A model generated the notes under the pieces. That model searched no databases, was not told the origin of the DNA, and saw nothing but the letters and a program-made list of their open reading frames with translations. The position numbers and the translations under genes were made by a program. From IMG/VR virus record IMGVR_UViG_2897375277_000001, positions 1 to 19,118 of that record: 19,118 bases of DNA. One strand, written 5' to 3'. The stretch is from a virus (Duplodnaviria; Heunggongvirae; Uroviricota; Caudoviricetes). Shown piece by piece: positions 1 through 18,065 of the stretch (positions are counted from its first letter, which is position 1; each line of letters starts with the position of its first letter).

Positions 1-58
1 GACTCAGATGAATTTCTTACTCTGTGGAATATCACTTAATGTCACTTATAGGTAAACA

Positions 59-703
59 ATGAAATCCGAAACGCTAACCATCCAGCAAATTTTCCAAAAT
101 CAACGACAATATCGTGTTCCATTCTATCAACGCGCCTACGTATGGACGCAACGAAACCAATGGTCAGCTTTGCTGGAGGATATCTTCGAAAAAGCACAGA
201 GCCGACTTTCGGGAACAAAACCAACCCCTCATTTCCTCGGCGCGGTGGTGCTGGAACCTCAACTAAAAAACAGCTTGTTAGGTGTAGATACCATACATAT
301 TATTGACGGCCAGCAACGTTTAACCACTCTTCAATATATTCTGGCATCCATTCGATTATCATTGCGTGCTACAGGCCTTTCTGAATTGGAAGGGTTAGTA
401 TTGACTTGCTTGAAAAATACAAACGAAGCAACGATGAGAAATAAAAAGGTAGAATGCTTCAAACTGTGGCCAACTTTTCGAGACCAACTCATTTTATTCA
501 TAGTCTTAATGTTGATAATATTGACGATCTCCGTAATGTATTTTCTGATAGCTTCACGCAAAATGGTACGTTACGTTAAACATTTCAACCACCCGCCGTC
601 ACTAGAGGCATTATGGTTTTTTACTGAAGCCTTTATAAAATGGATTAAAATAGAAAACCACTCACCACAAGAAAATGCGGTAGCACTAATTGAGGCTGTC
701 TGA
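59..703 (+). CDS. DUF262 (GmrS-like) N-terminal module of a GmrSD-family type IV restriction enzyme; probably the 5' part of one larger gene continuing at 773
   Basis: ATG at 59 with AGGT 5 nt upstream. Translation contains PFYQRAYVW and IIDGQQRLTT, motifs I recognise as DUF262. Same reading frame as ORF 773.., separated by four in-frame stops (701, 740, 746, 770). From about nt 480 the translation turns hydrophobic and junk-like while another frame reads more protein-like. Confidence 0.6.
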   Translation: MKSETLTIQQIFQNQRQYRVPFYQRAYVWTQRNQWSALLEDIFEKAQSRLSGTKPTPHFLGAVVLEPQLKNSLLGVDTIHIIDGQQRLTTLQYILASIRLSLRATGLSELEGLVLTCLKNTNEATMRNKKVECFKLWPTFRDQLILFIVLMLIILTISVMYFLIASRKMVRYVKHFNHPPSLEALWFFTEAFIKWIKIENHSPQENAVALIEAV

Positions 704-772
704 CGGAAATCTGAAACTGGTAAGCATATTTCTCGAAGCTGAAGATGATGCCAAATAATTTTGAAACATTAA

Positions 773-1781
773 ATGGCGAGGAGCGGAACTTCATGCAACG
801 ATCTTATTCGCAACTATATCTTTATGTGCGCTGAGCATGAAAATATTAATGCTATTGAATTATATGAAAATGAGTGGAAGAGCTTTGAAGATAAATACTG
901 GTCGGAAAAGCAACGCCGTGGACGTATTAATAAACCACGCATGGAGTGGCTTGTACATGCGACATTGCAATCAGAAAGGCAGCGTGAAATTGATCTGTCT
1001 CGCCTTTACAATGAGTATCGTGATTATGTAAGTAAGGACTTGCCTTCACAACGAGCAGATCTGCAAGTAAAGCGCCTCAAACAATATGCATCACAATATA
1101 AAGAATTGGTTGGTGGTTTTGGCACAACCCCCATCTCACACTTTGGACATCGCATCGCAGCCTATGATGTGACGACACTTTATCCGCTTGCTTTGTTCAT
1201 TTCGATAGCTAACATCGCCGATGATGAGAAAGCAGCCATGTATAATGATCTTGTCTCCTACGTAGTACGAAGAGCCGTATGTGGCCTGACGCCAAAGAAT
1301 TACAACAATGTATTTATGAATATATTGCGACACTTGTCTAAAACGGAAATTTCCAGTGTTGAGTTACGTAATATCCTCAATAGCTTAAATGGCGAAGCCT
1401 CACGTTGGCCTAGGGACTCAGAATTTCTCAACGCTTGCATCAATGCTCCACTTTATCCTGGCAGGCTCGACGCACCGAAAATGCGCTCAATGTTAACGGA
1501 ACTTGAAAGAGAACTTTGTCGCCAAGTGAAGACAGAAAAGCCTGATGTTCCAAATCTTTCTAATCTCGATATCGATCATCTTATGCCTCAAAGTTGGTAT
1601 TCCTGTTGGCCTCTCGAAAATGGTCATATGGTGACAAATTCAGATGCTACGGTATTGAACCAAATTGTTCTGTCTGGAACCGATCTTACCCCTGAACAGC
1701 TACTGGTAAGGAAACGGCAACAAGCGATAGCTACGTTGGGAAATCTAACTTTGCTTAACCTTAGCGTAAACCGTTCTGTTC
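773..1781 (+). pseudogene. GmrSD-family type IV restriction enzyme, central region plus DUF1524 nuclease domain, interrupted by IS66 after nt 1781
   Basis: Translation contains DIDHLMPQSW and GNLTLLNLSVNRSV, typical of DUF1524. The six-frame ORF continues to 1912, but 1782..1912 is IS66 terminal sequence; the native frame resumes at 4232. Confidence 0.65.
1774..1781. repeat. Left copy of 8-bp target-site duplication TTCTGTTC flanking IS66
   Basis: Identical octamer at 4224..4231 immediately outside the other IS end; 8 bp is the duplication size known for the IS66 family. Confidence 0.85.
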
Positions 1782-1818
1782 GTAAGCGTACAGCGAGGGC
1801 CGTATTGACGGGGATGTG

Positions 1819-3357
1819 TTATTCAGCTGGCAGTGCTATGCGCCACGGAAGCAGTTCGCTGACCCGGTTGACCGGCCAGTCTGCTATGACGCCAAGCACA
1901 TGGCGAAGGTAGCTTTCTGGATCCACGTCATTCAGTTTGCACGTCCCGATCAGGCTGTACAGTAGCGCTCCCCGCTCACCACCATGGTCAGAGCCGAAGA
2001 ACAGGAAGTTTTTACGACCCAGACTGACCGCCCGCAGGGCATTTTCAGCGATGTTGTTGTCGATTTCCACCCAGCCATCGTTCGCATAGTACGTCAGTGC
2101 CGGCCACTGGTTAAGTGCGTACGCGAACGCCTTCGCCAACTCTGAGTGTCGCGACAGGGTCTTCATCTTTTCACGCAACCAGCTTTCCAGGGATTTCAAC
2201 AGCGGTTTCGTTTTTCGCTGACGTTCAGCAAGCCGCTGCTCTGCCGGCATTCCCCTTATATCCGCCTCTATGGCGTACAACTGACCGATCTGCTCCAGGG
2301 CTTCTTCCGTCAGTGCTGACGGGATGCGGACGTGCACATCGTGGATCTTTCGGCGGGCATGAGCCCAGCAGGCAGCTTCCGTTATCCCACCATTGCGATA
2401 CAGCTCGTTGAACCCGGCGTACGCATCCGCTTGCAGCACACCGCTGAAGCAAGCAAGATGAGTCTGCGGATGGATGCCTTTCCTGTCCGGGCTGTAAGCG
2501 AACCACACTGCAGGTGCCAACGCTGACCCGGCATTGCGGTCATCACGAACATACGCCCACAACCGCCCGGTCTTCGTCTTCTTATTACCCGGCAGCAGTA
2601 CCTGGACCGGGGTATCATCGGCATGGAGTTTGCCGTCAGTCATGACATAGCCATGAAGCGCCTCTTCCAGCGGAGACAGCAGCCGGCAGCATGCATCCAC
2701 CCAGCCCGACAGCAGTGAACGGCTCAGCTCCACACCTTGCCGGCCGTATATTTCTGACTGGCGATACAGCGGGGTGTGCTCTGCATACTTCGAGGTCAGC
2801 ACGCGGGCCAGCAGCCCCGGTCCGGCGATACCCCGCTCGATGGGCCGCGAAGGTGCAGGTGCCTGCACGATGGCATCGCACTGAGTACAGGCATGTTTTT
2901 CCCGTACCGTCCGGATAACCCGGAAGGCGCTACGCATCAACTCCAGCTGTTCGGCGGTATCCTCGCCCAGATAGCTCAGTGAACCGCCGCAGTTCGGGCA
3001 GCACGGCGCCGCAGGCAACAGTCGCTTTTCGTCACGGGGTAGTGATTCAGGGAACGGCTTACGGGTGCGGGTCTGACGCAACGGACGCTGTACTGCCGGG
3101 TCATACACCCTACCAGTCAGCGTATCGCTCTCTTTCTGAAGCCGGTTCAGATCGGCTTCCATTTGTGCGATACGGCGGGAGACTTTTTCGGAACGACTGC
3201 CGAAGTTCATCCGGCGGAGTTTATCCAGCTGCGCCTGCAGATGGTCTATTTCGCGCTCCCGGTTGCTCAGCTTTTCCTGCAGGGCGTGGATCAGCGCTTC
3301 CTGTTCGGCCAGGCGCTGTTTCAGCAGGAAGATGTCGTCAGAAGAGATGTCGTTCAT
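1819..3357 (-). CDS. tnpC: IS66-family transposase TnpC
   Basis: 512-aa uninterrupted ORF; translation has the cysteine-rich region (CCPNCGG...CTQCD) and overall character I recognise as IS66 TnpC. Confidence 0.9.
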
Positions 3358-3406
3358 AAGCCCGTATTTTACCGGGCTTATTCTGTGACAACCAGGATAA
3401 AGAGAT

Positions 3407-3754
3407 TTACAGCATGGTCAGGGAGGTCAGCAGCCGCTTAGGCTGTCGCCAGTCGATACCTTCCAGCAGCATCGCCAGCTGCGCCTGCGTAAGGAACACT
3501 TTGCCATCACGGGCTGACGGCCAGGCGAAGCGCCCACGCTCCAGCCGTTTGGTCAGGAGGCACAGCCCGTCACCGGTGGACCACAGCAGTTTAACCTGAC
3601 TGCCGCTGCGGCCCCGGAAAATGAAAACATGGCCGGACATGGGATCGTCTTTCAGCGCCGTCTGTACTTTCGCAGCCAGGCCGTTGAAGCCATTTCTCAT
3701 ATCGGTGATACCGGCAACCAGCCAAATTTTGGTCCCGGAAGGTAACGGGATCAT
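3407..3754 (-). CDS. tnpB: IS66 Orf2 (TnpB)
   Basis: 115-aa ORF directly upstream of tnpC, 4-bp overlap with tnpA, size and position typical of IS66 orf2. Confidence 0.85.
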
Positions 3755-4152
3755 CGCTTCAGTTCCTGTATCAGCAGAGTCAGGAGCTTTTCGCTGACAT
3801 TGCCATTGAAGCGGAGCGTCCCGTGCCGGAACGTTACCTCACAGCTGATACTGAGGGTTTCCGGGTCCTCTGCGAGCGATTCTGGCTGTTCGGCAGCTGC
3901 ATCGAGAGTCACAGGAAGTAGCTGGGGGCTCTCTGAAGAAGGTAATAGCAGCTTTCCCTTGCGCCATTGTTGTCGCCATTTGAACAACAGATTGGCGTTA
4001 ATGCCATTTTCAAGAGCAAGTTTTGAGATGGATATCCCGGGTTCACAGGAGGCAGCAACGAGCTGCTGTTTAAATTCGGGAGGATAATTAGGGCAGCCTT
4101 TTCGCCTGCCGGGAGTCACATTTTTCTGCATATCTGACACTTTGGTTCCCAC
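3751..4152 (-). CDS. tnpA: IS66 Orf1 (TnpA)
   Basis: 133-aa ORF at the 5' end of the IS operon; the true start may be an internal Met. Confidence 0.8.
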   Translation of the reverse strand: MGTKVSDMQKNVTPGRRKGCPNYPPEFKQQLVAASCEPGISISKLALENGINANLLFKWRQQWRKGKLLLPSSESPQLLPVTLDAAAEQPESLAEDPETLSISCEVTFRHGTLRFNGNVSEKLLTLLIQELKR

Positions 4153-4223
4153 TACTTATTTGGTGGACACCACTTTGTCTAATTCGTCAGATTCTGACCA
4201 GACGGTTCAGGCTGTACGCTTAC

Positions 4224-4231
4224 TTCTGTTC
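4224..4231. repeat. Right copy of 8-bp target-site duplication TTCTGTTC flanking IS66
   Basis: Identical to 1774..1781. Confidence 0.85.
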
Positions 4232-4395
4232 AGAATGCTGTATTTCTGAAAAAACGTGATGCTCTCATCGTCCACACCAATCTACGACTGAACATTCCAC
4301 TTATAGTTAAGGATAAATGGGATGAGGATGAAATCCTGGAGCGGGGTAAAAAGTTGGGGGAAATTGCATTGAAAGTATGGCCAAAACACGATTAA
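4232..4395 (+). pseudogene. Displaced 3' fragment of the GmrSD-family gene (54 codons plus TAA stop at 4393..4395)
   Basis: After removing the IS and one duplication copy, codon cgt-tct-gtt-c|ag joins in frame and reads ...GNLTLLNLSVNRSV-QNAVFLKKRDALIVHTNLRLNIPLIVKDKWDEDEILERGKKLGEIALKVWPKHD*. It has no start codon of its own, so it is absent from the ORF track. Confidence 0.7.
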
Positions 4396-4418
4396 TGCAA
4401 TTAATAAAATAATTATAA

Positions 4419-4440
4419 CGGCCTTACATTAGTAAGGCCG
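4419..4440. terminator. Putative bidirectional intrinsic terminator hairpin
   Basis: Perfect 9-bp stem (CGGCCTTAC / GTAAGGCCG) with 4-nt loop ATTA, 24 nt after the restriction-gene stop; AT-rich on both sides (T-rich when read on the minus strand). Confidence 0.4.
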
Positions 4441-4490
4441 CTACTCACTATTAAATCCTTTAATTTGCATCAAGAACAGCAGTGTCAGCC

Positions 4491-4619
4491 CTAGGTCTCG
4501 GACTTTGTACCGCTTATCTTGTCTTCAAAAATCAGCTCGCATCCTGCACAGTTCAGCGCATTACGTTGTAGATCTGTGTTCTGGTCATTTATTGATACGC
4601 GTACATAGCCAATAAGCAT
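4491..4619 (-). pseudogene. Remnant of a Pin/Gin/Hin-family serine DNA invertase gene (first 42 codons only)
   Basis: Minus-strand translation from ATG at 4619: MLIGYVRVSINDQNTDLQRNALNCAGCELIFEDKISGTKSET*. This matches the N-terminus of Pin/Gin invertases as I recall them, including the catalytic-serine motif YVRVS. Only about 95 bp separate its end from the restriction-gene stop, so the remaining roughly 150 codons cannot be present. Confidence 0.75.
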
Positions 4620-4645
4620 AGTGGCTCCCTCTGACAAAAGCAGGA

Positions 4646-4981
4646 ATGATGCCATTTGCTCGTTATTTCTGCATTTTCATAAACGTTGGTTTGGGAGAAG
4701 GTGCTAACTGGGTTATGTTACCTGGAGGAATGATAATTCAGCGTGTTTATCTTGGATTTCCTGTCGGCACCAATGTAAGACACATAACTTTCCCCCGGTC
4801 GTTTACAACAACGAACTATTCCATCTCAATTAACTGGAATGATATCGGTACTGTAACAACTGAAACACAATCGCCAGCAAATGTGGCGGTTGTTCATCAA
4901 ACAAAATCATTAACAGGGGCCAGCATCTGGCAGGCAGGTCCCGGGGGATTTAATGTGGACATTATAGCGGTGGGGTATTGA
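4646..4981 (+). CDS. Alternative tail-fiber C-terminal cassette, silent in the current orientation
   Basis: The crossover site 4674..4699 lies within codons 10-18; it is followed directly by a Tfa gene and converges on the expressed fiber/Tfa pair, the G-segment-like layout. No fiber N-terminal constant region is attached. Confidence 0.55.
4674..4699. repeat. Left crossover site of invertible segment (12-2-12 invertase site, core TT)
   Basis: TTTTCATAAACG-TT-GGTTTGGGAGAA. Its inner half is the exact reverse complement of 6510..6521; the overall form resembles hix/gix-type sites. Confidence 0.6.
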
Positions 4982-4982
4982 T

Positions 4983-5411
4983 ATGTACGTATGGAGCGCT
5001 AAAGCAAATGGCTTTTTCCCCATATCGGAGAAAGAAAAATTTGAGGCATCAGGTCTGTGGCCTGATGATGGTGTAATAGTCAGTGAGGAAGAACATAAAA
5101 AGTTATTTACGGATATTCTACCAGGAAAACAGATTGGAACACTGAATGGAAAACCAGCACTGATAGATATTCCTCAGCCGACCAAAAAGGAATTAATAGC
5201 TATTGCTGAAGTTAAAAAATCCCAATTACGGGAAAAAGCTGACAGTGAAATATCCTGGCGTCAGGATGCTGTTGATGCTGATATCGCAACTGATGAAGAA
5301 ACTTCAACTCTCACCAAATGGAAGAAATACCGTGTGCTGCTGATGCGTGTTGATACTTCAACAGCACCCGATATTGAATGGCCTACGCCTCCGGCAGTTC
5401 AGGCCAGATGA
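4983..5411 (+). CDS. Tail fiber assembly protein (Tfa), alternative copy
   Basis: 142-aa ORF ending ...[23 protein letters not shown], the conserved Tfa C-terminal pattern. Confidence 0.8.
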
Positions 5412-5988
5412 CATCCGGCGTGGTGCTGGTATCTGTTACCGTCACCGCGTCAATGTAATCCAGCACGGCGTTAAGTCGGGTTGTTTCTGCCTGCGTCAGC
5501 TTCCGCCCGGCCTGTAATTTCAGTTGAATCAGACTGATGGAAGCCATTGCAGCATCAATCAGCGACTGGCGCTGTGCTTCTGCCGCGTCTACTGCGGCAC
5601 TATGCTGTGCCTCAGTATCTGTCACCCATTTCTCACCATCCCATTTATCGTATGGCGTTAACGGGACGATAGTGGTTGTATTTTCAGGGTAATCACCCGG
5701 AGCTGTGATTTCTTTTGATTCTCCCGTTTCGGTGTTATAGACAACTTCACCGCGATGGTCTGGCACATATTCCCATGAGTTTAAATCTGCCGAACGGCAG
5801 ATTGCATAACCAACCTTATGTGTGCCAGGAGCATCTAAACAGGAATATGCAGGGATACCGACACCCACAGCAAGATATTCAGTTGATGCAGAAATATACT
5901 CCCGTGTCTCACTGTCATAGTTATAAACGGTAATCTCTCCTGCCTTTGTGGCAATAAATTTATTATTTAAGATGGCGTTATACATCAT
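5383..5988 (-). CDS. Tail fiber assembly protein (Tfa), expressed copy
   Basis: 201-aa ORF ending ...[18 protein letters not shown]; start overlaps the fiber stop (ATGA); 3' end overlaps the convergent Tfa by 29 bp. Confidence 0.8.
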
Positions 5989-6812
5989 GCAGCCCTCACA
6001 ATGTAATTAAATGAAATATTACGTGGGCGTGTCTCTGCTGCACCGACAATACTGGTACTCAACCCCGTTGCCGTTCGTTTGTTATTTTTATTTCCTTCAA
6101 TCAGACAGTTGTAATCATCATTACCAATTAACGAATTGGTGGCATCAATACTGTCCGGGGACAAGGCATTAGTTGTGGAACTTAAAGTCAGCATCTCGTC
6201 TGAACTTGGAAGATTTTTTAATGGTGTTTCATTGCGTGAAATACCCGCGTAAAAAAAGGACTCATGCCTGTGAGCTTCAAAAGAGTCATTCTGAAGACTT
6301 AGCAAGGCTCGCCCCGCATCCACTCCACGTCCATCATCCCAGCCACGAATAAATTCACCGCGTAAATCAGGCAATTTATTGGTCGGGTAAGCCTTTGCCA
6401 GTTCCGGGTATTCTTCAGCAGAAAAAGCCGCACCATTGCATTTCAGCCAGCCTGTTGGCGGAGTGGCTGAAGGCCACGGAACAGGCACCCCAACCGGTAA
6501 TGCAGAGCCTTCTCCCAAACCAAGGTTTTCGAGAGCTGTTTTCACCGTGCCATCCGATTTGATATCGCCAAACGGATTCTTGCGGCTTAACAGCAGCGCA
6601 CGAAGCGCGGTAAGCAACTGGTCGTGCCGCGCCTTCTCCAGGCTGGCACCGGAGGCCTCCACCACGCTGCAGAGTTCTTCCTGCAACATGTCAAAGTAGT
6701 CATCATCCAGATCGGTGGCAGGCGTGCCTGTCTGGGGGTTACCACGGGTAAAACCGTTCTTACCCGGGCCGAACTTATCCTTCTGCGCGGTTTTCGTGTC
6801 TATACGATGCAT
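5985..6812 (-). CDS. Tail fiber protein (constant N-terminus plus variable C-terminus currently in the expressed orientation)
   Basis: 275-aa ORF with GGAG 7 nt before the ATG; the C-terminal region has [19 protein letters not shown], which resembles the receptor-binding region of Mu S / P2 H-type fibers. The crossover site 6510..6535 lies inside the gene. Confidence 0.75.
6510..6535. repeat. Right crossover site of invertible segment (12-2-12, core AA)
   Basis: TTCTCCCAAACC-AA-GGTTTTCGAGAG, which closely resembles the hixL sequence as I recall it (TTCTTGAAAACCAAGGTTTTTGATAA). Confidence 0.6.
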
Positions 6813-6815
6813 GGA

Positions 6816-7400
6816 TTACTCCGGATATTTAAAAATTACGTAGGTATGCGACGGGCAGAGTTTGTTAAGCACACATTCGACGACGGTGTCGCCCCAGACA
6901 CGCAGCGCGGAATCACAGGGATCGCCACATGTCATCCAGGTGGTGTTGGTGGCGGCTGGCATGTTGACCTGCCAGTAATACCGCCATTCCGGCGCATTCA
7001 CCGCGTCAGTACAGGCAGATGAGCAGGTGAAAGTGCTTTTATCGTATCGCGTGATGGTGGCATCCGGTCTGCCCAGGGCAGCAAGCTGTGCAAGGTAAAA
7101 ATCCTCATTGATGCCGCCCGCCAGATTAACCTTCGCATCCAGCCGTTGCTGACGCTGGCGAAGGGTCTGCGTTCCCGCCGGAATACATTCATCCGGCAGG
7201 CCGCACAGACGCTCCCAGCGGTTTATCAGTTCAGTGGTGGTGCGCGGATCCAGCTCCCGCATCAGGGCATCCGCACGCTGATGAACGCGGGTTAATGACG
7301 GTGCCGCACCGGCAATCGCCGGATCGCTGACTGACCACGCCGGACCGGGCGGCAACAGTGCCGACAACAGACGGATATAATCATCGTTTGTCACGTCCAT
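6816..7400 (-). CDS. YmfQ/DUF2313-family tail protein (Mu gp48-like)
   Basis: 194-aa ORF between the baseplate J-like gene and the tail fiber, overlapping its upstream neighbour; composition and position fit. Confidence 0.55.
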
Positions 7401-8449
7401 GAAATCGTCCCCAGAACTGCCAGCTCATTTTTTGCAATGGAGATATTGTCCGCCGGGGCAAGCAACTGATGGCTGTATTCCCCGTTCGCACCGGAAATCG
7501 CTTCACTGATACGTGACACCTTCAGTTCTCCCTGCGGATAACCATCACGCAGCAGGAACGAACGCAACTCCGCGGTGATGGCGGCTCGTATTTCCGGTGT
7601 ATCCGGCGTCACACGGATATGAAAATCCACTTTATGCGCCACCGGCCTGAATACATACAAATCAGAGCCTGCCACCGGGGCCAGTGGCTCGATATGTTGT
7701 CTTGCCGCCGTTTCCGTTGATTCTTCCGGAATGGGATTAATCAGGTCACTGCTGGCAATCATCACACCGACAGTTCCCGTTCCCATCCAGTGACGGTATG
7801 TCCATGCGCGGGTAATGCCGGGCACTTCTTTAGCCCAGACGACATAGTCCCCGTCAGCCCCGCCCTGAGGCGTCCAGTAATACCGCTCAATGACGCGGGC
7901 GCGCCACGTTTCCAGCTCTTCAGTATCAAATCCACCTGTCAGGGTATCTGCCACGCCGGAAGACGGCAGACCATTCACCGGCGTGACCAGGATTAATGAC
8001 GTACCGTCGTCAGCGTTACCGACCGCGCCTGCACTTGAGCAGGCGATCGGCACGCGCAGGACACCACCGGAGCTGGTTGCATCGGCAGTTGCCGTGTACT
8101 GAACCAGGTCATCGCGCTGAATAACACTCCCGGCGGTCACCTTCAGGCCATCGCTGACACCTTCCCAGCGCATATACCCGCTGGCAGTCGTGGCCCCCTT
8201 GCGCGGACACCGTTTCATCGCAGCATGTCGCGCCAGCCAGGACTCATCGCACAGGTCAGGCAGCATGTTCATTGCCAGATAATCGATGTACCCGTAAACC
8301 GTATGCAGCGCCGCCGCATACACCTTTGCCCGCACGTCTTCATCCATGCGCCGGAGCGTGTCGCTGACGTCCAGCCTGGCGAATAAATCGTTACGGAGCA
8401 TACTGATATTTTCTGCCAGCGTCGGGCGCTGAAATTCACTGTCCGCCAT
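7391..8449 (-). CDS. Baseplate J-like protein (Mu gp47 / P2 gpJ-like)
   Basis: 352-aa ORF in the expected position, 14-bp overlap with the upstream gene. Confidence 0.7.
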
Positions 8450-8864
8450 GCATTATCGCACTCCACAGATCATCAAAAGAAATCATTACCGGTCCGTCAC
8501 GACGCCAGAGAGTGATACTGTTACCCAGTTCATTAATCCCGGTGCGGCGGATATCCAGATCAATACGGGACACCACACCGTCATCAATCATCCATTGCAG
8601 GCATTCGCGGATATACCCCCTTACCGTCTGCACCAGCTGATTGGTCAGTTTGCCGCGCTGAAGCAGCCACAGCCGGGAGCCGTAACGGTCATTCTGTACC
8701 GCAGGCCAGGTATCCCCCCACCATCCCATCGGGACGTCGGCATTGTCATCAGGCTCCGCCCGCCGCCAGGTAAACAGGGAAATCACCACGGCGCGGGTCA
8801 GCGGATCCAGCGGTGCGCTGGCGCAGGTGCGTTTACCGTTCACCGTCAGCCACAGTTCCATCAT
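8436..8864 (-). CDS. Phage GP46-family baseplate protein
   Basis: 142-aa ORF, overlapping neighbours on both sides, expected position after the spike gene. Confidence 0.6.
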   Translation of the reverse strand: MMELWLTVNGKRTCASAPLDPLTRAVVISLFTWRRAEPDDNADVPMGWWGDTWPAVQNDRYGSRLWLLQRGKLTNQLVQTVRGYIRECLQWMIDDGVVSRIDLDIRRTGINELGNSITLWRRDGPVMISFDDLWSAIMHGGQ

Positions 8865-9409
8865 GCCTCCATCGCTTTATCCGGTTTGTCGGTGTTACTG
8901 CCCTGACCGTTCTCTCTGTGACGATGGCCGTTATAGGCAAGCCGCATCGCTGACATGGTGGTGCCGCCGGAGTCGCACAGGTCTTTCACCTGTCCGGTCA
9001 CTTCCAGGTCCATTTCAAAACGTGCTTTAGGTGAATTGCGAAACGTGATCGTTTTACCTGCACCGTCCACCACGATCCCCTCCCGGGTCAGCGTCACGGA
9101 CTGCCCCTGATCGTCATAGACAGCCACCTCACCCGTCTGCAGCCCTTTCAGGCGGTAGCGCCGGTCCGACACCGTAACAACCACCGCATGAGAACGGTCG
9201 CCATCCGGAAACAACACCACCGCTTCCGCACCGCTGTTTGCCCTTGAGGTAAAACCGTAGGGTTCAAGATGTTCAACCCCTGCTTTGGGTTCACCGGCAA
9301 TCAGGGACACATCCACGGTCTGACATTTCGTGGCGGCACTGATGCTTTTCACCACGGCCCGCCCAATCAGGCCGAGGAGTTGTCGCTGCATGGCTTCAAT
9401 CGTCCTCAT
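8861..9409 (-). CDS. Baseplate assembly protein V / spike (Mu gp45-like)
   Basis: 182-aa ORF; the N-terminal pattern MRTIEAMQRQLLGLIGRAVV...EPYGFTSRANSGAEAVVLFPDGDRSH is typical of the phage baseplate V family. Confidence 0.7.
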   Translation of the reverse strand: MRTIEAMQRQLLGLIGRAVVKSISAATKCQTVDVSLIAGEPKAGVEHLEPYGFTSRANSGAEAVVLFPDGDRSHAVVVTVSDRRYRLKGLQTGEVAVYDDQGQSVTLTREGIVVDGAGKTITFRNSPKARFEMDLEVTGQVKDLCDSGGTTMSAMRLAYNGHRHRENGQGSNTDKPDKAMEA

Positions 9410-10488
9410 CAGAACGGATCCTCCTGTACTCTGGCTTTTTTCTTTTTCCGCGAGCCGGGGGCTTCGGGTTCAGGCAGATAAGCATCAGGCGGGCCGACAC
9501 GGATTTCCGTCAGGGTGCCGTTCTGGTCCTGAGTAAACGTGACTTCCGAAACAAGCAGTTCGGTATTGTCGAAACCACAGACCGGATCGAAGACAATCAC
9601 CCGCTGGTTGGGCTGCCACAGCGTACCGTTACCCTGTCGCCAGCCCTGCACCACATAGGTGGTTTCATCCGTCCGCGCCGCCCGTTGCCGGGCTTCAAAG
9701 TCAGCACGGGCAATACAGCCTGCCCCCGTGGCCTGCCCTGTCTGCCTGATATACATCGGACGGTAACGGGCAATAAATGCGTCCTCTGTGCGGGCCCGCA
9801 GCGCGGTGGTGGTGGCCTCACCGAAATCATCGTCGTTTCCGGCACGCTGCCCCGCCACCTGGTAAACTGAAAACCGCTCCCGGATACTCTTCTCCGTATC
9901 ACAGGAAAGGATGTTTTCCCCAAGTACCAGCGCGGTATGTGCCCGCGTTGAGCCAATACCGCCAATCACCAGCCTGCCGTGCGGGTCGTCATAAGCCAGC
10001 GCCTGCTGCTGACCGAGTATTTTGTTGATTACCTCAATCACCGTTTCACCGTGATCAGGCTGGACATCAGGAATAACACCCGACGGCGCACCGCTGTTCA
10101 CCACCTCAATGCCGAAAGGCGCAGCAAGCGCCTGCGCAATCTGTACCAGCGATCGTCCGTTAAACTGTGTCGGTTCGGCTGCACAGTCAATCAGGTCAGC
10201 GGTCAGACTACGTCCGGCAATACCGGTGCTGACCGAACGGGCATCGTAACGAACGGGCGTCGCCTCCACCCAGCCAGTGATCACCAGCTCATCACCAATC
10301 AGCACTTCCACTTTTGAACCGTTTTTAATGCGCGGCTGAAGCGTGGTGATACCCTCATCTCCCGGCCACTGGCGGGTGATCTCCACACTGAAATCCCGCG
10401 CCAGTCGTTCAACACCGGCACCGATGCGCACCGATGTCCAGCCATTCCACTCCCGGCCATTTACCCGTAGCGTGACGTTATCGTTCAT
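9409..10488 (-). CDS. Mu P (gp44)/P2 gpD-like tail protein
   Basis: 359-aa ORF, gene order and translation character. Confidence 0.55.
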   Translation of the reverse strand: MNDNVTLRVNGREWNGWTSVRIGAGVERLARDFSVEITRQWPGDEGITTLQPRIKNGSKVEVLIGDELVITGWVEATPVRYDARSVSTGIAGRSLTADLIDCAAEPTQFNGRSLVQIAQALAAPFGIEVVNSGAPSGVIPDVQPDHGETVIEVINKILGQQQALAYDDPHGRLVIGGIGSTRAHTALVLGENILSCDTEKSIRERFSVYQVAGQRAGNDDDFGEATTTALRARTEDAFIARYRPMYIRQTGQATGAGCIARADFEARQRAARTDETTYVVQGWRQGNGTLWQPNQRVIVFDPVCGFDNTELLVSEVTFTQDQNGTLTEIRVGPPDAYLPEPEAPGSRKKKKARVQEDPF

Positions 10489-11812
10489 TGCACTGGCACC
10501 TTCAGAGGGATCACCGGCACAAAGCCGGGATGCGTAATGGCATTACGCCGGATAATGTCCCCGTCACGCGCCGCGTTATCAAACCAGGTCGCCGCCAGCA
10601 CCAGCGCGGGTAAAACCTCATCCGGCGTGCGCTGAATGATCCGTGCAGACTGTTCAAGGCGCGTGTTGATATCCGCATTCAGATCTGCTTTCACCCGGCG
10701 CAGCGCCAGAAACAGCGCATCACTGGTTGTACGGGACAACTCCTTATCAATTGCCGTATTCAGTGTGTCGCGAATGTCAGTCAGTTCTTCCCACGTTGGC
10801 AGGTCAACCGTGCTTTTCACCGCCGGTGCATTGTTCAGTGCCGGATGCGTGACGGAAGGCCAGCCAGTGCTCTGCGCGGGTGTTGTTGCCTGCCCCACTG
10901 CGGCATTCTGCATCACCGCGGAAGTTGTTGGCGCAGGCAATCGGGTGACGGCATACGCCGCTTCGCTGATTGCGGTCGTACGAAGGATGCTGGCAACCAC
11001 GTTACGCTGCTGTGTCGCCGTGGCGGTGGTTTTACTGTCCGTTTTCCAGACGCCGCGCGGTTGCAGATCGCTGCCAAGGCTGACACCGGAAAGCGTTTTG
11101 ATCATGGTGACCAGGTCGCTGGCGTTACCATAAAGGCGTTTCCCGGTACGCCACATTTTCTGCACCTGCTCAACGAAATTTTTGCCTGACGATGGCGGCG
11201 GCAGAAGTACCGAGATATCCCCTGCAACAGCCTGGCGGCATCCGATACGGCAGAATCCACCACTTTCATCGCATCAGAAACATACCCAAGCATTGTGCCG
11301 GCATTACCGACGACGTCGTTCTGCACAAAATCTGCCACGCCATCGATACTGAAACTACTGAAACTGTCACTGATGCAGTCATCCAGTGCAGAACAGGATG
11401 ACATCAGCGTCTGCGCCGTCGCCGCACCTGATGTGGGGTAAGAGAGTTCTCCCGCTTCGACAAACTTCAGGTCAAAGCGGACAATACGCCCTTCACTCTT
11501 CGATGTGCTGACCCGAACCTCTCCGTCAACACAGACTTTCAGCTCACCGTAAGTCGGATGGACAAGCGTGCCAGGACCGGGTTTATTCAGCGCGTCAATC
11601 AGGCGATCGCGCTGGTCAAAGCAGTCATCTCCCACCACATAAGCCGTGATGGACGGGCGGAAAGTGATTTTCCCCAGGTCTTCGGTATAGGGTTTGTCGC
11701 GGTTCGGGTATTCGTGCGTTTCCACACGACGACCGGTTCCCGTACTTTCTTCTTCAACCTTAAACGGCACACCGCGAAATGACGCGTCCTGAAGTCTGTC
11801 TTTCCACGTCAT
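10485..11812 (-). CDS. Mu N (gp43)-like DNA circulation protein, with an apparent frameshift near 11219..11222
   Basis: Likely start is ATG at 11812..11810 (MTWKDRLQDASFRGVPFKV) with GGAG 6 nt upstream. The frame of ORF 11102..11854 turns junk-like after ...SDAARLLQG, and the neighbouring frame reads on as DISVLLPPPSSGKNFVEQVQKMWRTGK...; the switch is at a CCCC run (plus strand). Confidence 0.55.
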
Positions 11813-11827
11813 ATAAACTCCGTACAT

Positions 11828-11849
11828 AAAAAATCCCACCGGAGTGGGA
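11828..11849 (-). terminator. Putative intrinsic terminator/attenuator between tape measure and N-like genes
   Basis: Minus strand reads TCCCAC-TCCG-GTGGGA followed by TTTTTT, 24 nt after the tape-measure stop. Confidence 0.45.
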
Positions 11850-11872
11850 CTCATTAACAGATTAATTTTTCA

Positions 11873-13696
11873 TTACCTGCCAAAGCACGTATAGCCAACA
11901 TCATGGCTGACATCAAAACCGCTGGATCGCGTTTCCATAACCCGCATCCCCGGAGGCGAATTCACAAAAGAGACCTTGATCTCACCATCAACTTTTGGCG
12001 CAGAAGCTTTGTTAATCATGAAGGGATTCGAGCCTGTGGCACCGGAGGCGTTGTTTGACTGAGCCGGATCCACCGCCGGATAAGGTGTGTATCCCGCGCC
12101 GGTATTCCCGTCCCATAAGCATCATAAGCACCCGCGCCCCACTGCGCAGAGTTAATGCATCGACCGTGTCACCGGAACTGTCGGTAAACCACTCAATAAT
12201 TGGCTTCAGCTTGTCCCACATATCCTGAAACCACTTAACAACCGGTCCCCAGTTATTGATCACCATCCCCAGCGGCGACCAGGCAAAAACCTTCTTAAGA
12301 AGTTCCCAGCCAGTCTCAAAATAAGGACCAATGGTTTCCAGAGTTTCTTGAAATAAGGTCCGACAACATCCCAATTAGTGATAATTAATCCCGCAGCCAG
12401 GGCTATCGCCGTCGCAATCATGCCAATCGGCGTCATCGACATGATCCTGCTGACAATACTGATGGCACCGCCAACGCCCATCAATCCCAGTTTCAGAATC
12501 GCAAGACCGGCAGCAAGCCCGACGACACCGCGAATAACCCGGGGATTTTCATCCGCAAACTTCGTGAATTTTTCCCCTAACTCCCCCAGCCATTGCGTGA
12601 TATTTTTGGCGTCACCAGAAAATGCGCCGCCAATAGCCGCAAGGCCGTTAGTTGCGGTCCCCGTCATTGCCTCCCACAGGTTGGACAGCGTACCAAGCTG
12701 GGCCTGAACACGTTTATTCAGGCTGGCCTGTTTATTCATCTTCTGCTGGATCTGATCGTAGCCATCCTTTCCTTTATCGATTAGTGCATTGACCACCTGA
12801 AGGGTTTCGGCATCATCACCAAATATTGCCTTAAGTACACCTGTTCGCTTAACGTCGGTCAGTTTTCGCAGCTTTGCCAGTTGCCTGAACATGTTATCAA
12901 GACCGCCAAAACTTCCTTTGCCGTCAGTAAAATCGAGCTGTACCCCGAGTTTCTGGCGGGCCATGACTTTATTGACGTCCCTGATTTTCTTAACGCTTAA
13001 TCCGGACTGGATAACTTTTCGCAGGGCATTACCTGCCGACTCCCGTTCATCCCCATCTGATCCATCATAACGCTGATGGGGGCAAGGCTCTGTGCAGCCT
13101 GAAGACCGTCCTTGTTCACCATCTTCAGAACAGAACTGGTTTTAGTGAAGAAGGACAACATGTTGTATCGTCAACGCCCAGATAAAACGCCTTCTGGATA
13201 GTGTCGAACAGCCCCATCATGTCTTCTGACGCCGTTCCGGTAGCATCCTGCATCTTTGCAGCAAACTCAGCAGCCGCTTCCGGTGTTTTTTCAGTTGTAC
13301 CGCAAGATAAGCTGTCGCTTTACCCACACCGCCAAGAATGTTTTCTGCGGGATCCCTGACGCACCAGCATCTGCATCATGTTCTGGAAATCAGCCGTTGT
13401 ACGGGTAGCTGGTTACCCAGGCCAATAGCCAGTTTATTGATGTCCTGAAAGCGCTTTCCGACCTCACCGTTCGCATCCATCATGGCAACTTTCAGCCCGT
13501 GGCGGCGTTTTCCTGATCGGCATAAGATTTCAGGAAAGCGTCAGACCCGCAGCCAGTCCGCCACCAAGCGCCAGCCCACCCTGTGACGCTTCTTCCGCCT
13601 GGCGTTTAAATCCCGGATTTTCTTTTGCATTTTCGACAGCGCGGGAGAAAGCCTGTCGACACCGGTGATCAACGCCTTAAGCTCAAATTCAGCCAT
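11873..13696 (-). CDS. Tail tape measure protein, with multiple apparent frameshifts
   Basis: Start ATG 13696..13694 (MAEFELKALITGVDRLSPALSKMQKK) with GGAG upstream. ORFs 12260..12964, 12012..12374 and 11873..12073 are successive pieces of one protein in different frames; 12965..13696 has no ORF of 60 aa or more in any frame yet reads as tape-measure sequence across frame switches. Confidence 0.6.
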
Positions 13697-13835
13697 GTGT
13701 GCGTTTCTCCTGCTCTATCCTGTTTGCCTGACTGACCAGCAAGGAATTTCACTGATCGGCATATTCAGCAATTCGAAGGGATTAATGCGCCAGTAGCTGC
13801 GCAGTCAAAGAAGCGATCAGTGAGGTATTCAGCCG

Positions 13836-14102
13836 TCAGGCCTGGAGGAAAAAACCGGCCACAAGCCACGCCGCTGCATTCAGGTCTGCCGGAGACATCT
13901 GGTCGACAGAGCTTTGCGGCACTTTCGCCAGCCGCACAATGTATTTCGACACCACATGCGCCAGAAGTCTGACGGACTCATCCTGATTCATCTGGTAGGG
14001 ATACCCAGCTCGCGGACATCCTTCCGGTGGTTCATCAAACTCCAGTACGGAGAGTGTCTCGCCATGAGCAATAATCGGTTTCTTTAACTCAAGCTCTTTC
14101 AT
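13836..14102 (-). CDS. Tail assembly chaperone (Mu gp41 / P2 gpE-like)
   Basis: ATG at 14102..14100 (MKELELKKPIIAHGETLSVLEFDEP...); lies between tube and tape measure; carries a slippery heptamer 2 codons before its stop. Confidence 0.55.
   Translation of the reverse strand: MKELELKKPIIAHGETLSVLEFDEPPEGCPRAGYPYQMNQDESVRLLAHVVSKYIVRLAKVPQSSVDQMSPADLNAAAWLVAGFFLQA
13848..13854 (-). other. Candidate programmed -1 ribosomal frameshift site T-TTT-TTC in the chaperone gene
   Basis: Minus-strand zero-frame codons GGT-TTT-TTC immediately before ...LQA-stop; the -1 frame stays open for 29 more codons to a TGA at 13765..13767. Confidence 0.4.
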
Positions 14103-14454
14103 TACTGGTAATCCCTTCTTCACCGTGGAACTCAAGATCAACCGTGCCTTCTTCGGCATTATGGTTCGCTTCGCCGTGCAGCCAGGCAGACGACAGTACA
14201 TAGACCTGACCGTTCGCCAGCTCGGCAGTGATTGTCATCTCATCAGACGAGGTGATTTTGCTCACCGGAAAATTCTTCGCACCTTGAAGGTCCCTTTGAC
14301 ATAAGGCGCACGGTGAGTTTCCTTGCGGTCCACTGAACCGTCCAGGCCGATGATGTCATCATTGACCGTCCTGTTCATGGCACCTCAATGCCGCCGGTCA
14401 GCGATAGCTGCTGACCGTCAATTTTGAAATAACAGGTTCCCCGATACGGGCCAT
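14089..14454 (-). CDS. Tail tube protein, with apparent frameshifts
   Basis: Start ATG overlaps the sheath stop (TAATG at 14457..14452). Translation pieces MARIGEP..., FKIDGQQLSLTGGIEV and TVNDDIIGLDGSVDRKETHRAPYVKGTFKV fall in different frames; one switch is at a CCCC run at 14439..14442. Confidence 0.45.
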
Positions 14455-16072
14455 TATGCGGACTCCTCTGAATACTGAAGACGGAACTGGTTAACCACGG
14501 CAAAGACACGCAACTGGTTAACATAGTCAGGCGGGAACAGCGTGTTCAGGCGGTTCGGATCGCTGGCATCACGCTCCACAACCAGGTACTGCTTAAAAAG
14601 TTCGTAGTTTTCCACGATCCCGCACGCTCAAGCTGACGGTAGGTTGCCAGCAGTTCCCTTTGATCACCGCCTGGGTGACAATCGCCTGACCGGACCAAAG
14701 CGGTACCGTCGCTGGCAAGCTTGTGACGCCCGTACTTACTGGTAATGACGGATTTCAGTTTGCGCAGTACATACGCACTGGTATGCAGCGTCTCGCTGTC
14801 GAGGTAGCTGTTATCCGCAACCCCGTAAGCGTTTTTCCTGTACGTGGTGACATCACGCTGAATGCGCAGTACCCGCTTTCGACATACGCCGTTGCCACGC
14901 CATGAGACAGCAGGGTCTGTTGTTCGGTCATCGTGAACCGTTTCCCCTTCGGCGCAGGCAGCATACCCACCAGCTCACCGTCTGCGTGGACGTGCCGGAT
15001 CGTTGCGGATAAACACCGCTGCGCGGGCGGTACGGCTTGCGCCAGCTCGTCGGCAGCGTCTGGTCTCTTTTCGTACCCGCCAGGGTAATGTGCTGCTGGT
15101 TAAACTGGTCACCTGCGTCACCAGTTCTGACAGCGTGCCGATCTTTGCCGTATACACATGACCATACAGCTGACGCGCATAGCTCCAGCGACCGCTGGTA
15201 TCGTTCATCTCGGTCACCAGCGTGTTAACGGAGCCGTGTCGTTGAACGGCAGGCCGATATAATCAAACGGCTCATCCGCCATTGCAGCCACCGCGCCGGT
15301 GAGAACAGGAGAACCCGTTCCGGCGGTACCCGTCGCCACGGCAATCTGTACGCCGCTGGCAGCACTTCGCCCCACCAAGCCGTAGTAATTGAGGCTGACA
15401 GGAATTTCATTCCGCAAAGCCCTTATGACGCGCGGTCAGTGTGACCACGCCAGCGAAGATGAAGCTGTAAACGCAGAGTCGGAACGGCATTGATGGCATC
15501 CTGGATACTGCCGGCAATCGTCGCGACGTTATCGCCATTGGTCACCGGTGCCTGCACGCGGGTACGTCCACATAAACATTCACCGTGCGGTTTCGGTTGC
15601 CGCCCGGTCACCGTCAGCGTAACCGTTGCCGCCGCGCCTGTGGCTTCCGGAACGGCAATCACATACAGCTCGCAAACGGGTCAGTCTGGCGATAAGCCTC
15701 GACCATACGCGCCAGCTGACTTCCCGCACCACAAATCTGGAGTGCATAGTCTGCCGACGGCATCAGTACCAGACTGTTGGCAACAATCTCTGCACCGTTA
15801 TTGCATGACCAATCAGCAGCGATGCTCCGCTGTCCTGTGCAGTATTCGCCGCCTGGTTATCCATTTCCGCATAAACAACGGAACCAGCGTATTCGACGGA
15901 ATGGTGTTAAAGCTTATCGTCATCGGTATTCACCTTTTTATTCACGCGCCGGATATCACCCGCTGCTTCACGGCGCAGCCAGTAGTTGTTCTCGTCAACA
16001 TTTCGCCCTTCGCGGCAAAGGTCGCCGCGGCAGGGTCAGGAACTGACCGCCCTTTAACAGGTTGACAAACAT
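14455..16072 (-). CDS. Tail sheath protein, with multiple apparent frameshifts
   Basis: Start ATG 16072..16070 with GAGGA upstream. The translation across frames reads ISFNTIPSNTLVPLF-YAEMDN...NTAQDSGASLLIGHAIT... and MTEMNDTSGRWSYARQLYGHVYTAKIGTLSELV..., which looks like a contractile sheath. Only ORFs of 80 aa or less survive in this 1.6-kb stretch. Confidence 0.55.
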
Positions 16073-16074
16073 GA

Positions 16075-17130
16075 GGATCCTCAGAAGGAAGGGTTATTTC
16101 GGTGTGATGTTCGATATCGCCGTCAGGCCGTTACGGGCTCGAGATAATCAACATCAATCGCCAGCGTTTGCAGTTCATCCAGACTGTTCAGATCATCCTG
16201 CTGGCGGGTATCGTCTTCAGTCAGCTCGCTGATGACCGAAAAATCGAACTGATAAATCAGCTCATGACGATTCAGATCCAGCAGCGTGCCGCCGTCATAG
16301 GTAATCGGGTTACCGCACGCCTCCGGGTTCCAGCCAGCAGAGCCTTAAGAGCATCTGCGGACATCGTCCACCACATCATACGAGGCAAACTGACCGCGCT
16401 CATCACGCCCGTTACTCAGTATGACAACCACGGAGAAACCTCTTTCAGCTCCTGCAGTAGTCGGTCTGGCTTTGTTTCTCCCGAGAATCATCACCCGGTA
16501 CAACATATGCCGCCGGGAGTTTCAGCTTCCGACCTCCGGCAGATTTTGAACTGGGCGCGCCTGCAACCCGGTTTTCAAAATACGGACAGCGGGCACGCAG
16601 TGCAGCAATAACAGGCGTCAGTTTCATCTGTGTCGTCGCTCCGGCTTCAGTGATTACGCAATTCCGCGCCAGAAAATAGCGTGTCCAGCTGCGGTTCTTT
16701 TCAAGAGTTTCCACCATGAAGTTATTACGTGGAGCCAGTCGCCAGCCGCTGCCACCGGATGCACCACGATGATGGCTGCGACGACGCTTTGCCCTCTCTT
16801 CACGCCATAGAACAAAAAGCCGGATAAAATCACGGTGATGCGGCGTTTCCCTCACCATTACGCTGGTTAGGGGCTATACGAGCCATAAACCGGGCGATGT
16901 TTACTGGCTCTGGGTACCATATAACCAATCGAACGTGCCAGGCGTCCGGTCTGATAACCGGGGTTTTCACCCGGTGCCGACCGCGCACGGCGCATCACAG
17001 CCGACGGCATCACGCATATGACGCTGACCAATCGTGACAAACGCCGCCGGACACGGGCGCGGTTAAAGCGCATCTCCGCGGCTGCTGAAATCAACGTGCA
17101 AAAAGGAAGTCGCCATTGTTGCCTCCGTGA
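16075..17130 (-). other. Fragmented minus-strand virion morphogenesis / tail completion genes (not resolved)
   Basis: Protein-like minus-strand translation in pieces across frames (for example ...GNPITYDGGTLLDLNRHELIYQFDFSVISELTEDD...), with no long intact ORF. Confidence 0.3.
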
Positions 17131-17136
17131 CTCTGC

Positions 17137-17499
17137 CTACATTCGCCCAGCTCCGTACACTCCAGCAGCAGAAAGCGCCGCGCACCGTTCAGATCGCGCT
17201 GACGTTTCACCGGTACACACTATCACCGCAGACCACCTCATAATCAGCGGTGATCCCCCGGCGGTAGCGAATGGTGATGTAATGGGTGATGGCGTCTCCG
17301 GTCTGCGCGGTTTCCTGCCAGGTGGTGGCACTGGTCTGGACAACCTTCGCCCATGCCGGAACGCAACCGGGTATTGAGGCTCCACGCCAAAGTTATCCGA
17401 GGGCATATCCACCCGCTGGCGGATCAGGACGCGTTTATTCAGTTCGCCGGGGTCCGGCAGAATGTAGGTTGCGCTGGTCTGCGCCTGACGAATTTTCAT
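17137..17499 (-). CDS. Head-tail adaptor / head closure protein, with apparent frameshift
   Basis: N-terminus MKIRQAQTSATYILPDPGELNKRVLIRQRVDMPSDNFG resembles the adaptor family; the ORF then turns proline/arginine-rich and junk-like while another frame reads TGDAITHYITIRYRRGITADYEVVCGDSVYR. Confidence 0.4.
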   Translation of the reverse strand: MKIRQAQTSATYILPDPGELNKRVLIRQRVDMPSDNFGVEPQYPVAFRHGRRLSRPVPPPGRKPRRPETPSPITSPFATAGGSPLIMRWSAVIVCTGETSARSERCAALSAAGVYGAGRM

Positions 17500-17817
17500 T
17501 GCGGAAAGTACCTGTACGGGCCGACAAGCCAGCCAAAACTCTGCGGCATGTCGAGTTTCTCCACTTCCGTAACCGAAGAGCGGTTTTCGTAAAAATGGCT
17601 GATAAGCATCAGCATCCCCAGACGAATATCATCGGTAGTGCAGCCCGTCCGGATCGCTGTCCGGAATGGTTTCATCCGGTGCATAGAGCTTCCGGTTCAG
17701 ATACGTTTCCGTCCGCTTTTGTGCCGCACATGCCAGCAGTTGCAGATGGCGGTCATCAGTATCGAAATCCTCATCCAGCCGGAGTTGGGCTTTAATCTCT
17801 TCCATTGTCAGAAGCAT
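17496..17817 (-). CDS. gp6-like head-tail connector protein, with apparent frameshift
   Basis: N-terminus MLLTMEEIKAQLRLDEDFDTDDRHLQLLACAAQKRTETYLNR (ORF 17629..17817) and C-terminus ...DDIRLGMLMLISHFYENRSSVT...GPYRYF (ORF 17496..17684) are in different frames. Confidence 0.55.
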
Positions 17818-18016
17818 ACTCAGCCCTCTTTACTGGTCGTGGCTTTTTCTCTTTTGCCGCTTTACTGCTTTTTGCACTGATTCCGCGCTCTGCTAACCCG
17901 GCCTGAAGTGCAATCTCCTGCACCCGGGCAGGAAGCGCCCCGTCGTCATACTCACCCCGAATGACCTCAACACGCATACCGTCCGGTGACCATTTCAGAT
18001 CTTGTTTCAGGATCAT
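17792..18016 (-). CDS. Hypothetical small phage protein downstream of the capsid gene
   Basis: 74-aa ORF with ATG 18016..18014, overlapping the connector start; no recognisable motif. Confidence 0.3.
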   Translation of the reverse strand: MILKQDLKWSPDGMRVEVIRGEYDDGALPARVQEIALQAGLAERGISAKSSKAAKEKKPRPVKRAEYASDNGRD

Positions 18017-18038
18017 GATTCTTCACCCGTCAGAACAG

Positions 18039-18058
18039 GGGGCGCGGTTCCGCGCCCC
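18039..18058 (-). other. GC-rich stem-loop immediately after the capsid stop (possible processing/stability or attenuating element)
   Basis: GGGGCGCGG-TT-CCGCGCCCC, a perfect 9-bp palindrome (effectively 8-bp stem with 4-nt loop), starting 7 nt after the capsid TAA at 18066..18068; no U-run follows on the minus strand. Confidence 0.4.
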
Positions 18059-18065
18059 TGAGTGA

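Follow-up and report, generated by a model that had tools for sequence, protein, structure and literature searches.

An ISEc8 insertion in a prophage-borne gmrSD gene of Escherichia albertii 2014C-4356 and the indels of a probably redundant contig

Has the type IV restriction gene gmrSD in this stretch of DNA been interrupted by a single insertion sequence (IS), and is the rest of the gene still readable? The stretch (the window, 19,118 nt, IMG/VR virus record IMGVR_UViG_2897375277_000001) is, from position 1 to 19118, the whole of record NZ_CP024288.1, which was deposited for Escherichia albertii 2014C-4356 under the name "plasmid unnamed6". The fusion protein of the open reading frame (ORF) at 773-1909 has an exact match in one record only, CP024288.1 (19,118 bp). 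We consider it highly probable that the locus as a whole is explained by a copy of ISEc8 in a prophage-borne gmrSD gene, together with artefactual insertions and deletions (indels) in a redundant contig of that prophage. GmrSD, here encoded by an e14/SfII-like prophage at icd, is a single-chain type IV enzyme cutting DNA with 5-hydroxymethylcytosine (5hmC) or glucosyl-5hmC; a DUF262 NTPase domain forms its N-terminal part, and a DUF1524 His-Me-finger nuclease its C-terminal part.

ISEc8 in codon 576 of gmrSD

The octamer TTCTGTTC was found at 1774-1781 and again at 4224-4231, with 2442 bp between the two copies; the probability that two fixed octamers match by chance is about 1.5e-5. The segment enclosed by them ends in inverted repeats (GTAAGCGTACAGC, 1782-1794 and 4211-4223), which are perfect over 13 bp and imperfect farther in. 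It contains three intact ORFs, all on the minus strand and in the order tnpA-tnpB-tnpC (Table 1), and the frame of tnpA stays open upstream of the RefSeq ATG as far as a GTG at 4152. The segment 1782-4223 is identical at 2442 of 2442 positions to five E. coli plasmid copies that the Prokaryotic Genome Annotation Pipeline (PGAP) names 'IS66-like element ISEc8', and the assignment was made via these PGAP-named copies. Copies at least 99% identical occur in thousands of records. From the octamers, the inverted repeats, the transposase domains and the identity to ISEc8, the 2442-bp IS66-family element between perfect 8-bp repeats is as an earlier note, made from the letters of the window alone, had described it. 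Other ISEc8/IS66 copies are likewise flanked by 8-bp duplications (GTTCTTTA, CTTTGCTT). Several ISEc8 matches began 10-16 nt before the end of the IS, which raised the possibility of a longer element or a target consensus; this was rejected as chance extension, because the flanks elsewhere are unrelated and merely T-rich.

The interrupted gene was identified from its intact allele, in which Pfam recognizes GmrSD_N (PF03235) at 1e-33 and GmrSD_C (PF07510) at 9e-21; the search of the rebuilt gene with the DUF262 and DUF1524 profiles, which the earlier note had recommended, is therefore significant for both domains. The window ORF at 59-700 matches PF03235 at 6e-22. All four motifs quoted in that note (PFYQRAYVW, DGQQRLTT, DIDHLMPQSW and GNLTLLNLSVNRSV) are present. 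DGQQRLTT is a motif of the DUF262/GmrSD_N (ParB-like NTPase) domain, and DIDHLMP supplies D507-H508 of (D/E)HxxP, with N563 and N572 also in place. The 5' part of the gene therefore holds DUF262/GmrSD_N (DGQQR) and most of DUF1524/GmrSD_C (D507-H508, N563, N572). Furthermore, the PADLOC model mREase_IV was matched over residues 1-629 of 629 with 1497 bits, which agrees with the proposal of a GmrSD-family type IV restriction gene. NCBIfam contains no model matching the GmrSD protein, a sequence search of the PDB returned a DUF262 protein (9jfl) as its sole match, which is weak (E=3e-7), and the gene has no match in the 'phages' collection. The gene was found in 306 of 5426 complete E. coli genomes, always on the chromosome, and is contiguous in 299 of the 306 carriers. 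The UTI89 gene ('UT enzyme') has 93.6% nucleotide identity over the full 1890 nt. Because six residues reported for the prototype enzyme are in place, the UTI89 gene is 93.6% identical and the mREase_IV match is full length, the protein is, as judged by sequence, orthologous to two biochemically characterised enzymes, Eco94GmrSD and UTI89 GmrSD.

The junction is exact. The IS splits codon 576 as C|AG; the join is in frame, and counting this codon 54 codons follow before the TAA at 4393, so that the junction arithmetic of the earlier note is right. An allele with an empty site exists in E. coli H22 (NZ_CP120563.1), where gmrSD is uninterrupted (1890 nt, 629 aa), and strain 1190 also carries an uninterrupted 1890-nt gene, between an icd' fragment and a pin remnant. 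After removal of the IS and one octamer the window is colinear with the H22 allele and shows no difference at the join, and the two are identical over 800-1781 and from 4232 to the stop. The expectation that relatives would carry an empty site corresponding to loss of the element plus one octamer was thus matched in H22. The chromosome of 2014C-4356 itself (CP024282.1, locus L015, same assembly) contains the same prophage, found via its baseplate J protein, with head and tail genes all full length. In this copy the IS is base-for-base identical, the duplication is the same, and the upstream gene part of 1726 nt is open. Removal of the IS and one octamer yields a protein of 629 aa that is 100% identical to that of H22, with 1 nt differing in 1890. 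Transposition of a single ISEc8 copy into codon Q576 produced the 8-bp duplication. The exact left junction (40 nt) had no matches in the viral, genome and metagenome contig collections scanned, and the sole IS-gmrSD junction among complete E. coli genomes is a different insertion in avian pathogenic E. coli (APEC). By this comparison, the junction appears to be private to 2014C-4356.

Table 1. Coordinates of gmrSD, the inserted element and the neighbouring features in the window
Feature	Position	Strand	Evidence and remarks
gmrSD, 5' part	59..1781	+	From the intact gene (629 aa), codons 1-575 and the first base of Q576; Pfam, H22 alignment
Indels in gmrSD	485..800	+	Nine homopolymer-length indels and one substitution, frame broken; alignment to H22; absent from chromosome copy
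Left target-site duplication	1774..1781		TTCTGTTC, 8 bp; same duplication in chromosome copy
ISEc8 (IS66 family)	1782..4223	-	2442 bp, intact
IS-encoded read-through	1782..1912	+	43 unrelated residues (RKRTARAV...STWRR*) on truncated GmrSD
tnpC, IS66 DDE transposase, 512 aa	1819..3357	-	Pfam DDE_Tnp_IS66 5e-107, LZ_Tnp_IS66, zf-IS66, DDE_Tnp_IS66_C; NCBIfam transpos_IS66 2e-138
tnpB, IS66 accessory protein, 115 aa	3407..3754	-	Pfam TnpB_IS66 1e-38; NCBIfam IS66_TnpB
tnpA, IS66 accessory protein, 126 aa from RefSeq ATG	3751..4131	-	Pfam HTH_Tnp_1; NCBIfam IS66 TnpA
Right target-site duplication	4224..4231		TTCTGTTC, 8 bp
gmrSD, 3' part	4232..4395	+	Last two bases of Q576, 53 codons, TAA at 4393-4395; identical to H22 allele
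Hairpin, 13 pairs, terminator-like	4415..4444		Directly 3' of the gmrSD stop; scan called minus strand; consensus match only
Pin-family invertase remnant	4491..4619	-	42-aa N-terminal part of Resolvase domain; Pfam Resolvase 4.7e-8
Segment 1 against CP024282.1	1-4701		Same orientation; 0 mismatches, 10 gap positions; blastn
Segment 2 against CP024282.1	4681-6528		Inverted; 2 mismatches, 0 gap positions; blastn
Segment 3 against CP024282.1	6508-18359		Same orientation; 0 mismatches, 90 gap positions; blastn

Homopolymer indels and the nature of the contig

The window does not hold an intact, expressible gmrSD ORF, because the gene is interrupted by the IS at codon 576 and by indels and stops at 485-800. 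Only the ORFs 59-703 and 773-1912 are open, and the joined reading meets four in-frame stops. The earlier note, which treated the plus-strand gene as one readable frame, overlooked nine frameshifting indels in this region. By alignment to H22 these are six 1-bp deletions (485, 700, 750, 758, 774, 799) and insertions at 576 and 707-708, with one substitution at 797, and each indel alters the length of a homopolymer run. For this reason a reconstruction "to the base" and a "single clean insertion" do not hold for the window; both hold for the chromosomal copy CP024282.1.

Taken literally, the sequence could be that of a decayed pseudogene, in which the indels at 485-800 are real and the IS entered a gene already dead or decay followed the insertion. 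The two short ORFs and the four in-frame stops would fit such a history. However, the indels are absent from the chromosome copy, and a blastn comparison of the window with the prophage stretch of CP024282.1, which gave three segments (Table 1), shows no substitutions outside an invertible segment, and none across the first 4.7 kb. Over the whole window there are 98 deletions and 4 insertions relative to H22; runs of at least two bases hold 94 of the 98 deletions, as against 46% of positions in the background, and the deleted base is C or G in 78 of the 98. The indels form two patches, 485-800 and about 11000-18400, within DNA otherwise identical to the chromosome. The same kind of patch that breaks gmrSD also breaks the tape-measure, tail assembly, tube, sheath, terminator and head-closure genes at 11000-18400, all of which are intact both in E. 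coli H22 and in the chromosome copy. About 100 indels with zero substitutions are not what a real mutation process would give. We thus regard a decayed gmrSD as extremely unlikely, and a mismatch-repair mutator signature, or real decay, as the cause of the indels was ruled out by comparison with the chromosome copy. Since CP024282.1, from the same assembly, is free of indels and of substitutions over 1-4701, the changes at 485-800 are to be read as PacBio consensus errors in a redundant contig and not as biological.

In the second patch, at 11000-18400, there are about 90 homopolymer deletions, mostly of C or G. On the same sequence comparison these are to be taken as assembly errors and not as prophage decay.

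What kind of contig carries these errors? The gene content of the window is that of a partial prophage arm, whose end falls inside the major capsid gene, and no replication, partition or mobilisation genes were found on NZ_CP024288.1. The PLSDB entry for unnamed6 describes it as circular and non-mobilizable and gives no replicon type. The genome was obtained from PacBio RSII reads by HGAP3 assembly with Pilon polishing (PMC5754485). Thus, unnamed6 is probably not a plasmid but a PacBio contig that was poorly polished and duplicates the chromosomal prophage arm. It would have been assembled separately, probably because some cells carried the tail-fibre segment in the opposite orientation, and we infer that Pilon was unable to mend stretches present in both contigs. 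The published announcement weighs against this explanation, as it states 200-600x coverage and overlapping ends for the plasmid contigs (PMC5754485), which at face value is a poor fit to a low-coverage leftover contig. The overlapping ends and the deposition as a circular plasmid would instead suit a real 19-kb circle, either a plasmid or an excised phage-derived molecule, with a second copy of the interrupted gene. We consider such a circle very improbable, given the lack of replication, partition and mobilisation genes and of a replicon type, the prophage arm that stops within a capsid gene, and a sequence that equals the chromosome except for homopolymer indels and one inverted segment. The redundant contig of the prophage arm remains our preferred reading. 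The main practical value of the result lies in curation: NZ_CP024288.1 would be an error-laden duplicate of a chromosomal prophage arm deposited as a plasmid, and its roughly 100 frameshifts, those of gmrSD included, should not be read as pseudogenisation.

Consequences for the enzyme and a second insertion in the same gene

In the HNH model of GmrD, a structural Asn (N169) and a metal-binding Asn (N178) were assigned (Machnicka et al., PMC4619093). With an offset of 394 (GmrD H114 corresponds to H508), these become N563 and N572, both of which are Asn here. The ISEc8 copy in codon Q576 lies four residues past the predicted metal-binding Asn572 and inside the HNH helix as modelled, and the Pfam GmrSD_C match breaks off there, at profile position 93 of 138. 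The GmrSD frame annotated in the chromosome copy extends into the IS and encodes 618 aa; the last 54 residues are lost and 43 IS-encoded residues stand in their place. Judging from this exchange and from the position of the insertion, nuclease function and hence phage exclusion are most likely abolished.

Two points speak against a complete loss. The insertion at codon 576 leaves every predicted catalytic residue (D507, H508, N563 and N572) on its upstream side, and a natural variant of 604 aa has been reported in APEC O1, so that some C-terminal variation may be tolerated. With its NTPase domain and all of these residues retained, the 618-aa fusion could accordingly be at least partly active. 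We hold this to be unlikely, because the GmrSD_C match ends well short of its profile, the insertion is only four residues beyond the metal-binding Asn within the modelled helix, and the lost 54 residues are identical to those of the H22 allele and open in 299 of the 306 E. coli carriers. The proposal of a clean knockout by a single IS therefore stands in part: the single clean insertion applies to the chromosome copy only, the window being marred by its indels, and the knockout itself is a probable consequence. E. albertii 2014C-4356 is probably GmrSD-negative, which could affect its susceptibility to T-even phages.

A different 2442-bp element of the IS66 family was observed in the same gmrSD gene of APEC IMT5155 (locus L003, 5358-7799), DE17 and VTB96815v. 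Its identity to ISEc8 is that of a mosaic: 86-88% in bp 1-800, 93.5% in bp 801-1000 and at least 99% from there on. This element is inserted 25 bp upstream of the ISEc8 site, in the same orientation, with the duplication CTTTGCTT, and removes the predicted metal-binding Asn572. The two 2442-bp insertions, 25 bp apart, are independent, and this is the only mildly interesting point of the locus. It is unlikely that IS66-family elements have a hotspot in the 3' end of gmrSD, where the HNH helix is encoded, or that knockouts there are repeatedly selected; selection might act, for example, because GmrSD is self-toxic or blocks the uptake of modified DNA. In VTB96815v (NZ_CP178648.1) the halves of the IS-interrupted gene are found at 3.83 Mb and 1.31 Mb, a distance of about 2.5 Mb, which suggests an IS66-mediated chromosomal rearrangement. 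This strain has an IS3-family element as well, within the N-terminal half of gmrSD.

The prophage slot and comparison with known systems

The gene order shared by H22, 1190 and the E. albertii chromosome runs from the icd' fragment through gmrSD, the pin remnant and the tail-fibre cassette to ymfQ and the Mu-like baseplate and tail genes. The window begins 58 bp upstream of gmrSD, so icd' lies outside it. The hairpin at 4415-4444 is placed between the convergent gmrSD and pin remnant, and the latter, for which RefSeq has 'recombinase family protein, incomplete' as annotation in both H22 and 1190, shows where the cargo slot next to pin is. In the e14 prophage of K-12 the genes pinE-mcrA-icdC occupy the same prophage end. 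From this arrangement, gmrSD is placed in the mcrA slot of an icd-integrated e14/SfII-like prophage. The position between the pin remnant and icd', next to tail-fibre and Mu-like baseplate genes, bears out the suggestion that the gene is prophage cargo.

Several observations were made on the neighbourhood. The tail-fibre cassette at 4681-6528 (gp53-like/Tfa versus Collar fibre/Tfa) is inverted relative to the strain's own chromosome copy and is bounded by 21-nt Pin/Cin-type crossover sites (AAACGTTGGTTTGGGAGAAGG), which are inverted repeats at 4681-4701 and 6508-6528. Since the adjoining pin is a 42-aa remnant, any ongoing inversion needs an invertase encoded elsewhere, acting in trans. Closely related prophages with an identical baseplate J protein carry different defence-type genes in the slot next to pin (L011, 14612-17422; L016, 14356-15129; L005, 7347-8180). 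The contents include a 936-aa SIR2_2 protein, a LEM-3-like GIY-YIG nuclease and GmrSD, with mcrA in K-12 e14. From its gene content, the pin-side prophage end looks like a variable defence-cargo site. The icd' fragment and gmrSD of H22 have as their direct neighbour a lambda-like prophage arm (L001, 138-4931), which carries gam, bet, exo, xis and an int gene interrupted by an internal stop, so that two prophages stand in tandem at icd.

Enzyme and IS are already known, as are the way in which the gene is disrupted and its genomic setting, and the probable knockout by an IS is a routine one. Such knockouts of defence genes are common, so there is little new biology here beyond the curation of NZ_CP024288.1. 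The earlier note had considered the context and the insertion to be notable; this was too generous, as a prophage site beside tail-fibre genes has already been described and the enzyme already characterised (PMC4437046). Eco94GmrSD is a 629-aa, prophage-borne protein encoded next to tail-fibre genes (He et al., 2015, PMC4437046). Its cleavage of 5hmC and glucosyl-5hmC DNA is stimulated by nucleoside triphosphates (NTPs), and it restricts T-even phages (PMC4437046). D507, H508 and N522 were reported to be critical, and C517, N528 and N535 were also mutated (PMC4437046). Restriction of T-even phages by the prototype GmrSD enzymes fails when the phage brings in the inhibitor IPI*.

The protein encoded here has 629 aa and a DUF262 plus DUF1524 architecture in common with Eco94GmrSD (ECSTEC94C_1402, WP_000834395), EcoUTI89GmrSD and EcoCT596GmrSD. 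By length and reported residue positions it corresponds to Eco94GmrSD, with D507, H508, C517, N522, N528 and N535 at the same six positions. Both are prophage-borne, beside the tail-fibre genes of an SfII-like myovirus prophage. The gene here differs by ISEc8 at codon 576 and by its host, E. albertii and not E. coli. Residue 313, reported as R, is D here, which is an allelic or numbering difference. BrxU (E. fergusonii pEFER) and SspE also have DUF262 plus DUF1524 in common with GmrSD, and the PADLOC models SspE and Orf5 match the N-terminal domain of GmrSD here, although both proteins are distant relatives only, BrxU being reported as 13% identical to GmrSD. Like gmrSD, mcrA of K-12 e14 is a type IV modification-dependent HNH restriction gene between pin and the icd' duplication. 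However, McrA belongs to an unrelated family with its own N-terminal reader domain in place of DUF262 and DUF1524, the orientation of mcrA is opposite, and pin in the window is just a 42-aa remnant. ISEc8, finally, is alike in its 2442 bp, its gene order tnpA-tnpB-tnpC, its 8-bp duplication and its terminal repeats starting GTAAGCG; the copy in gmrSD shows no structural difference from it, and the insertion site alone is new.

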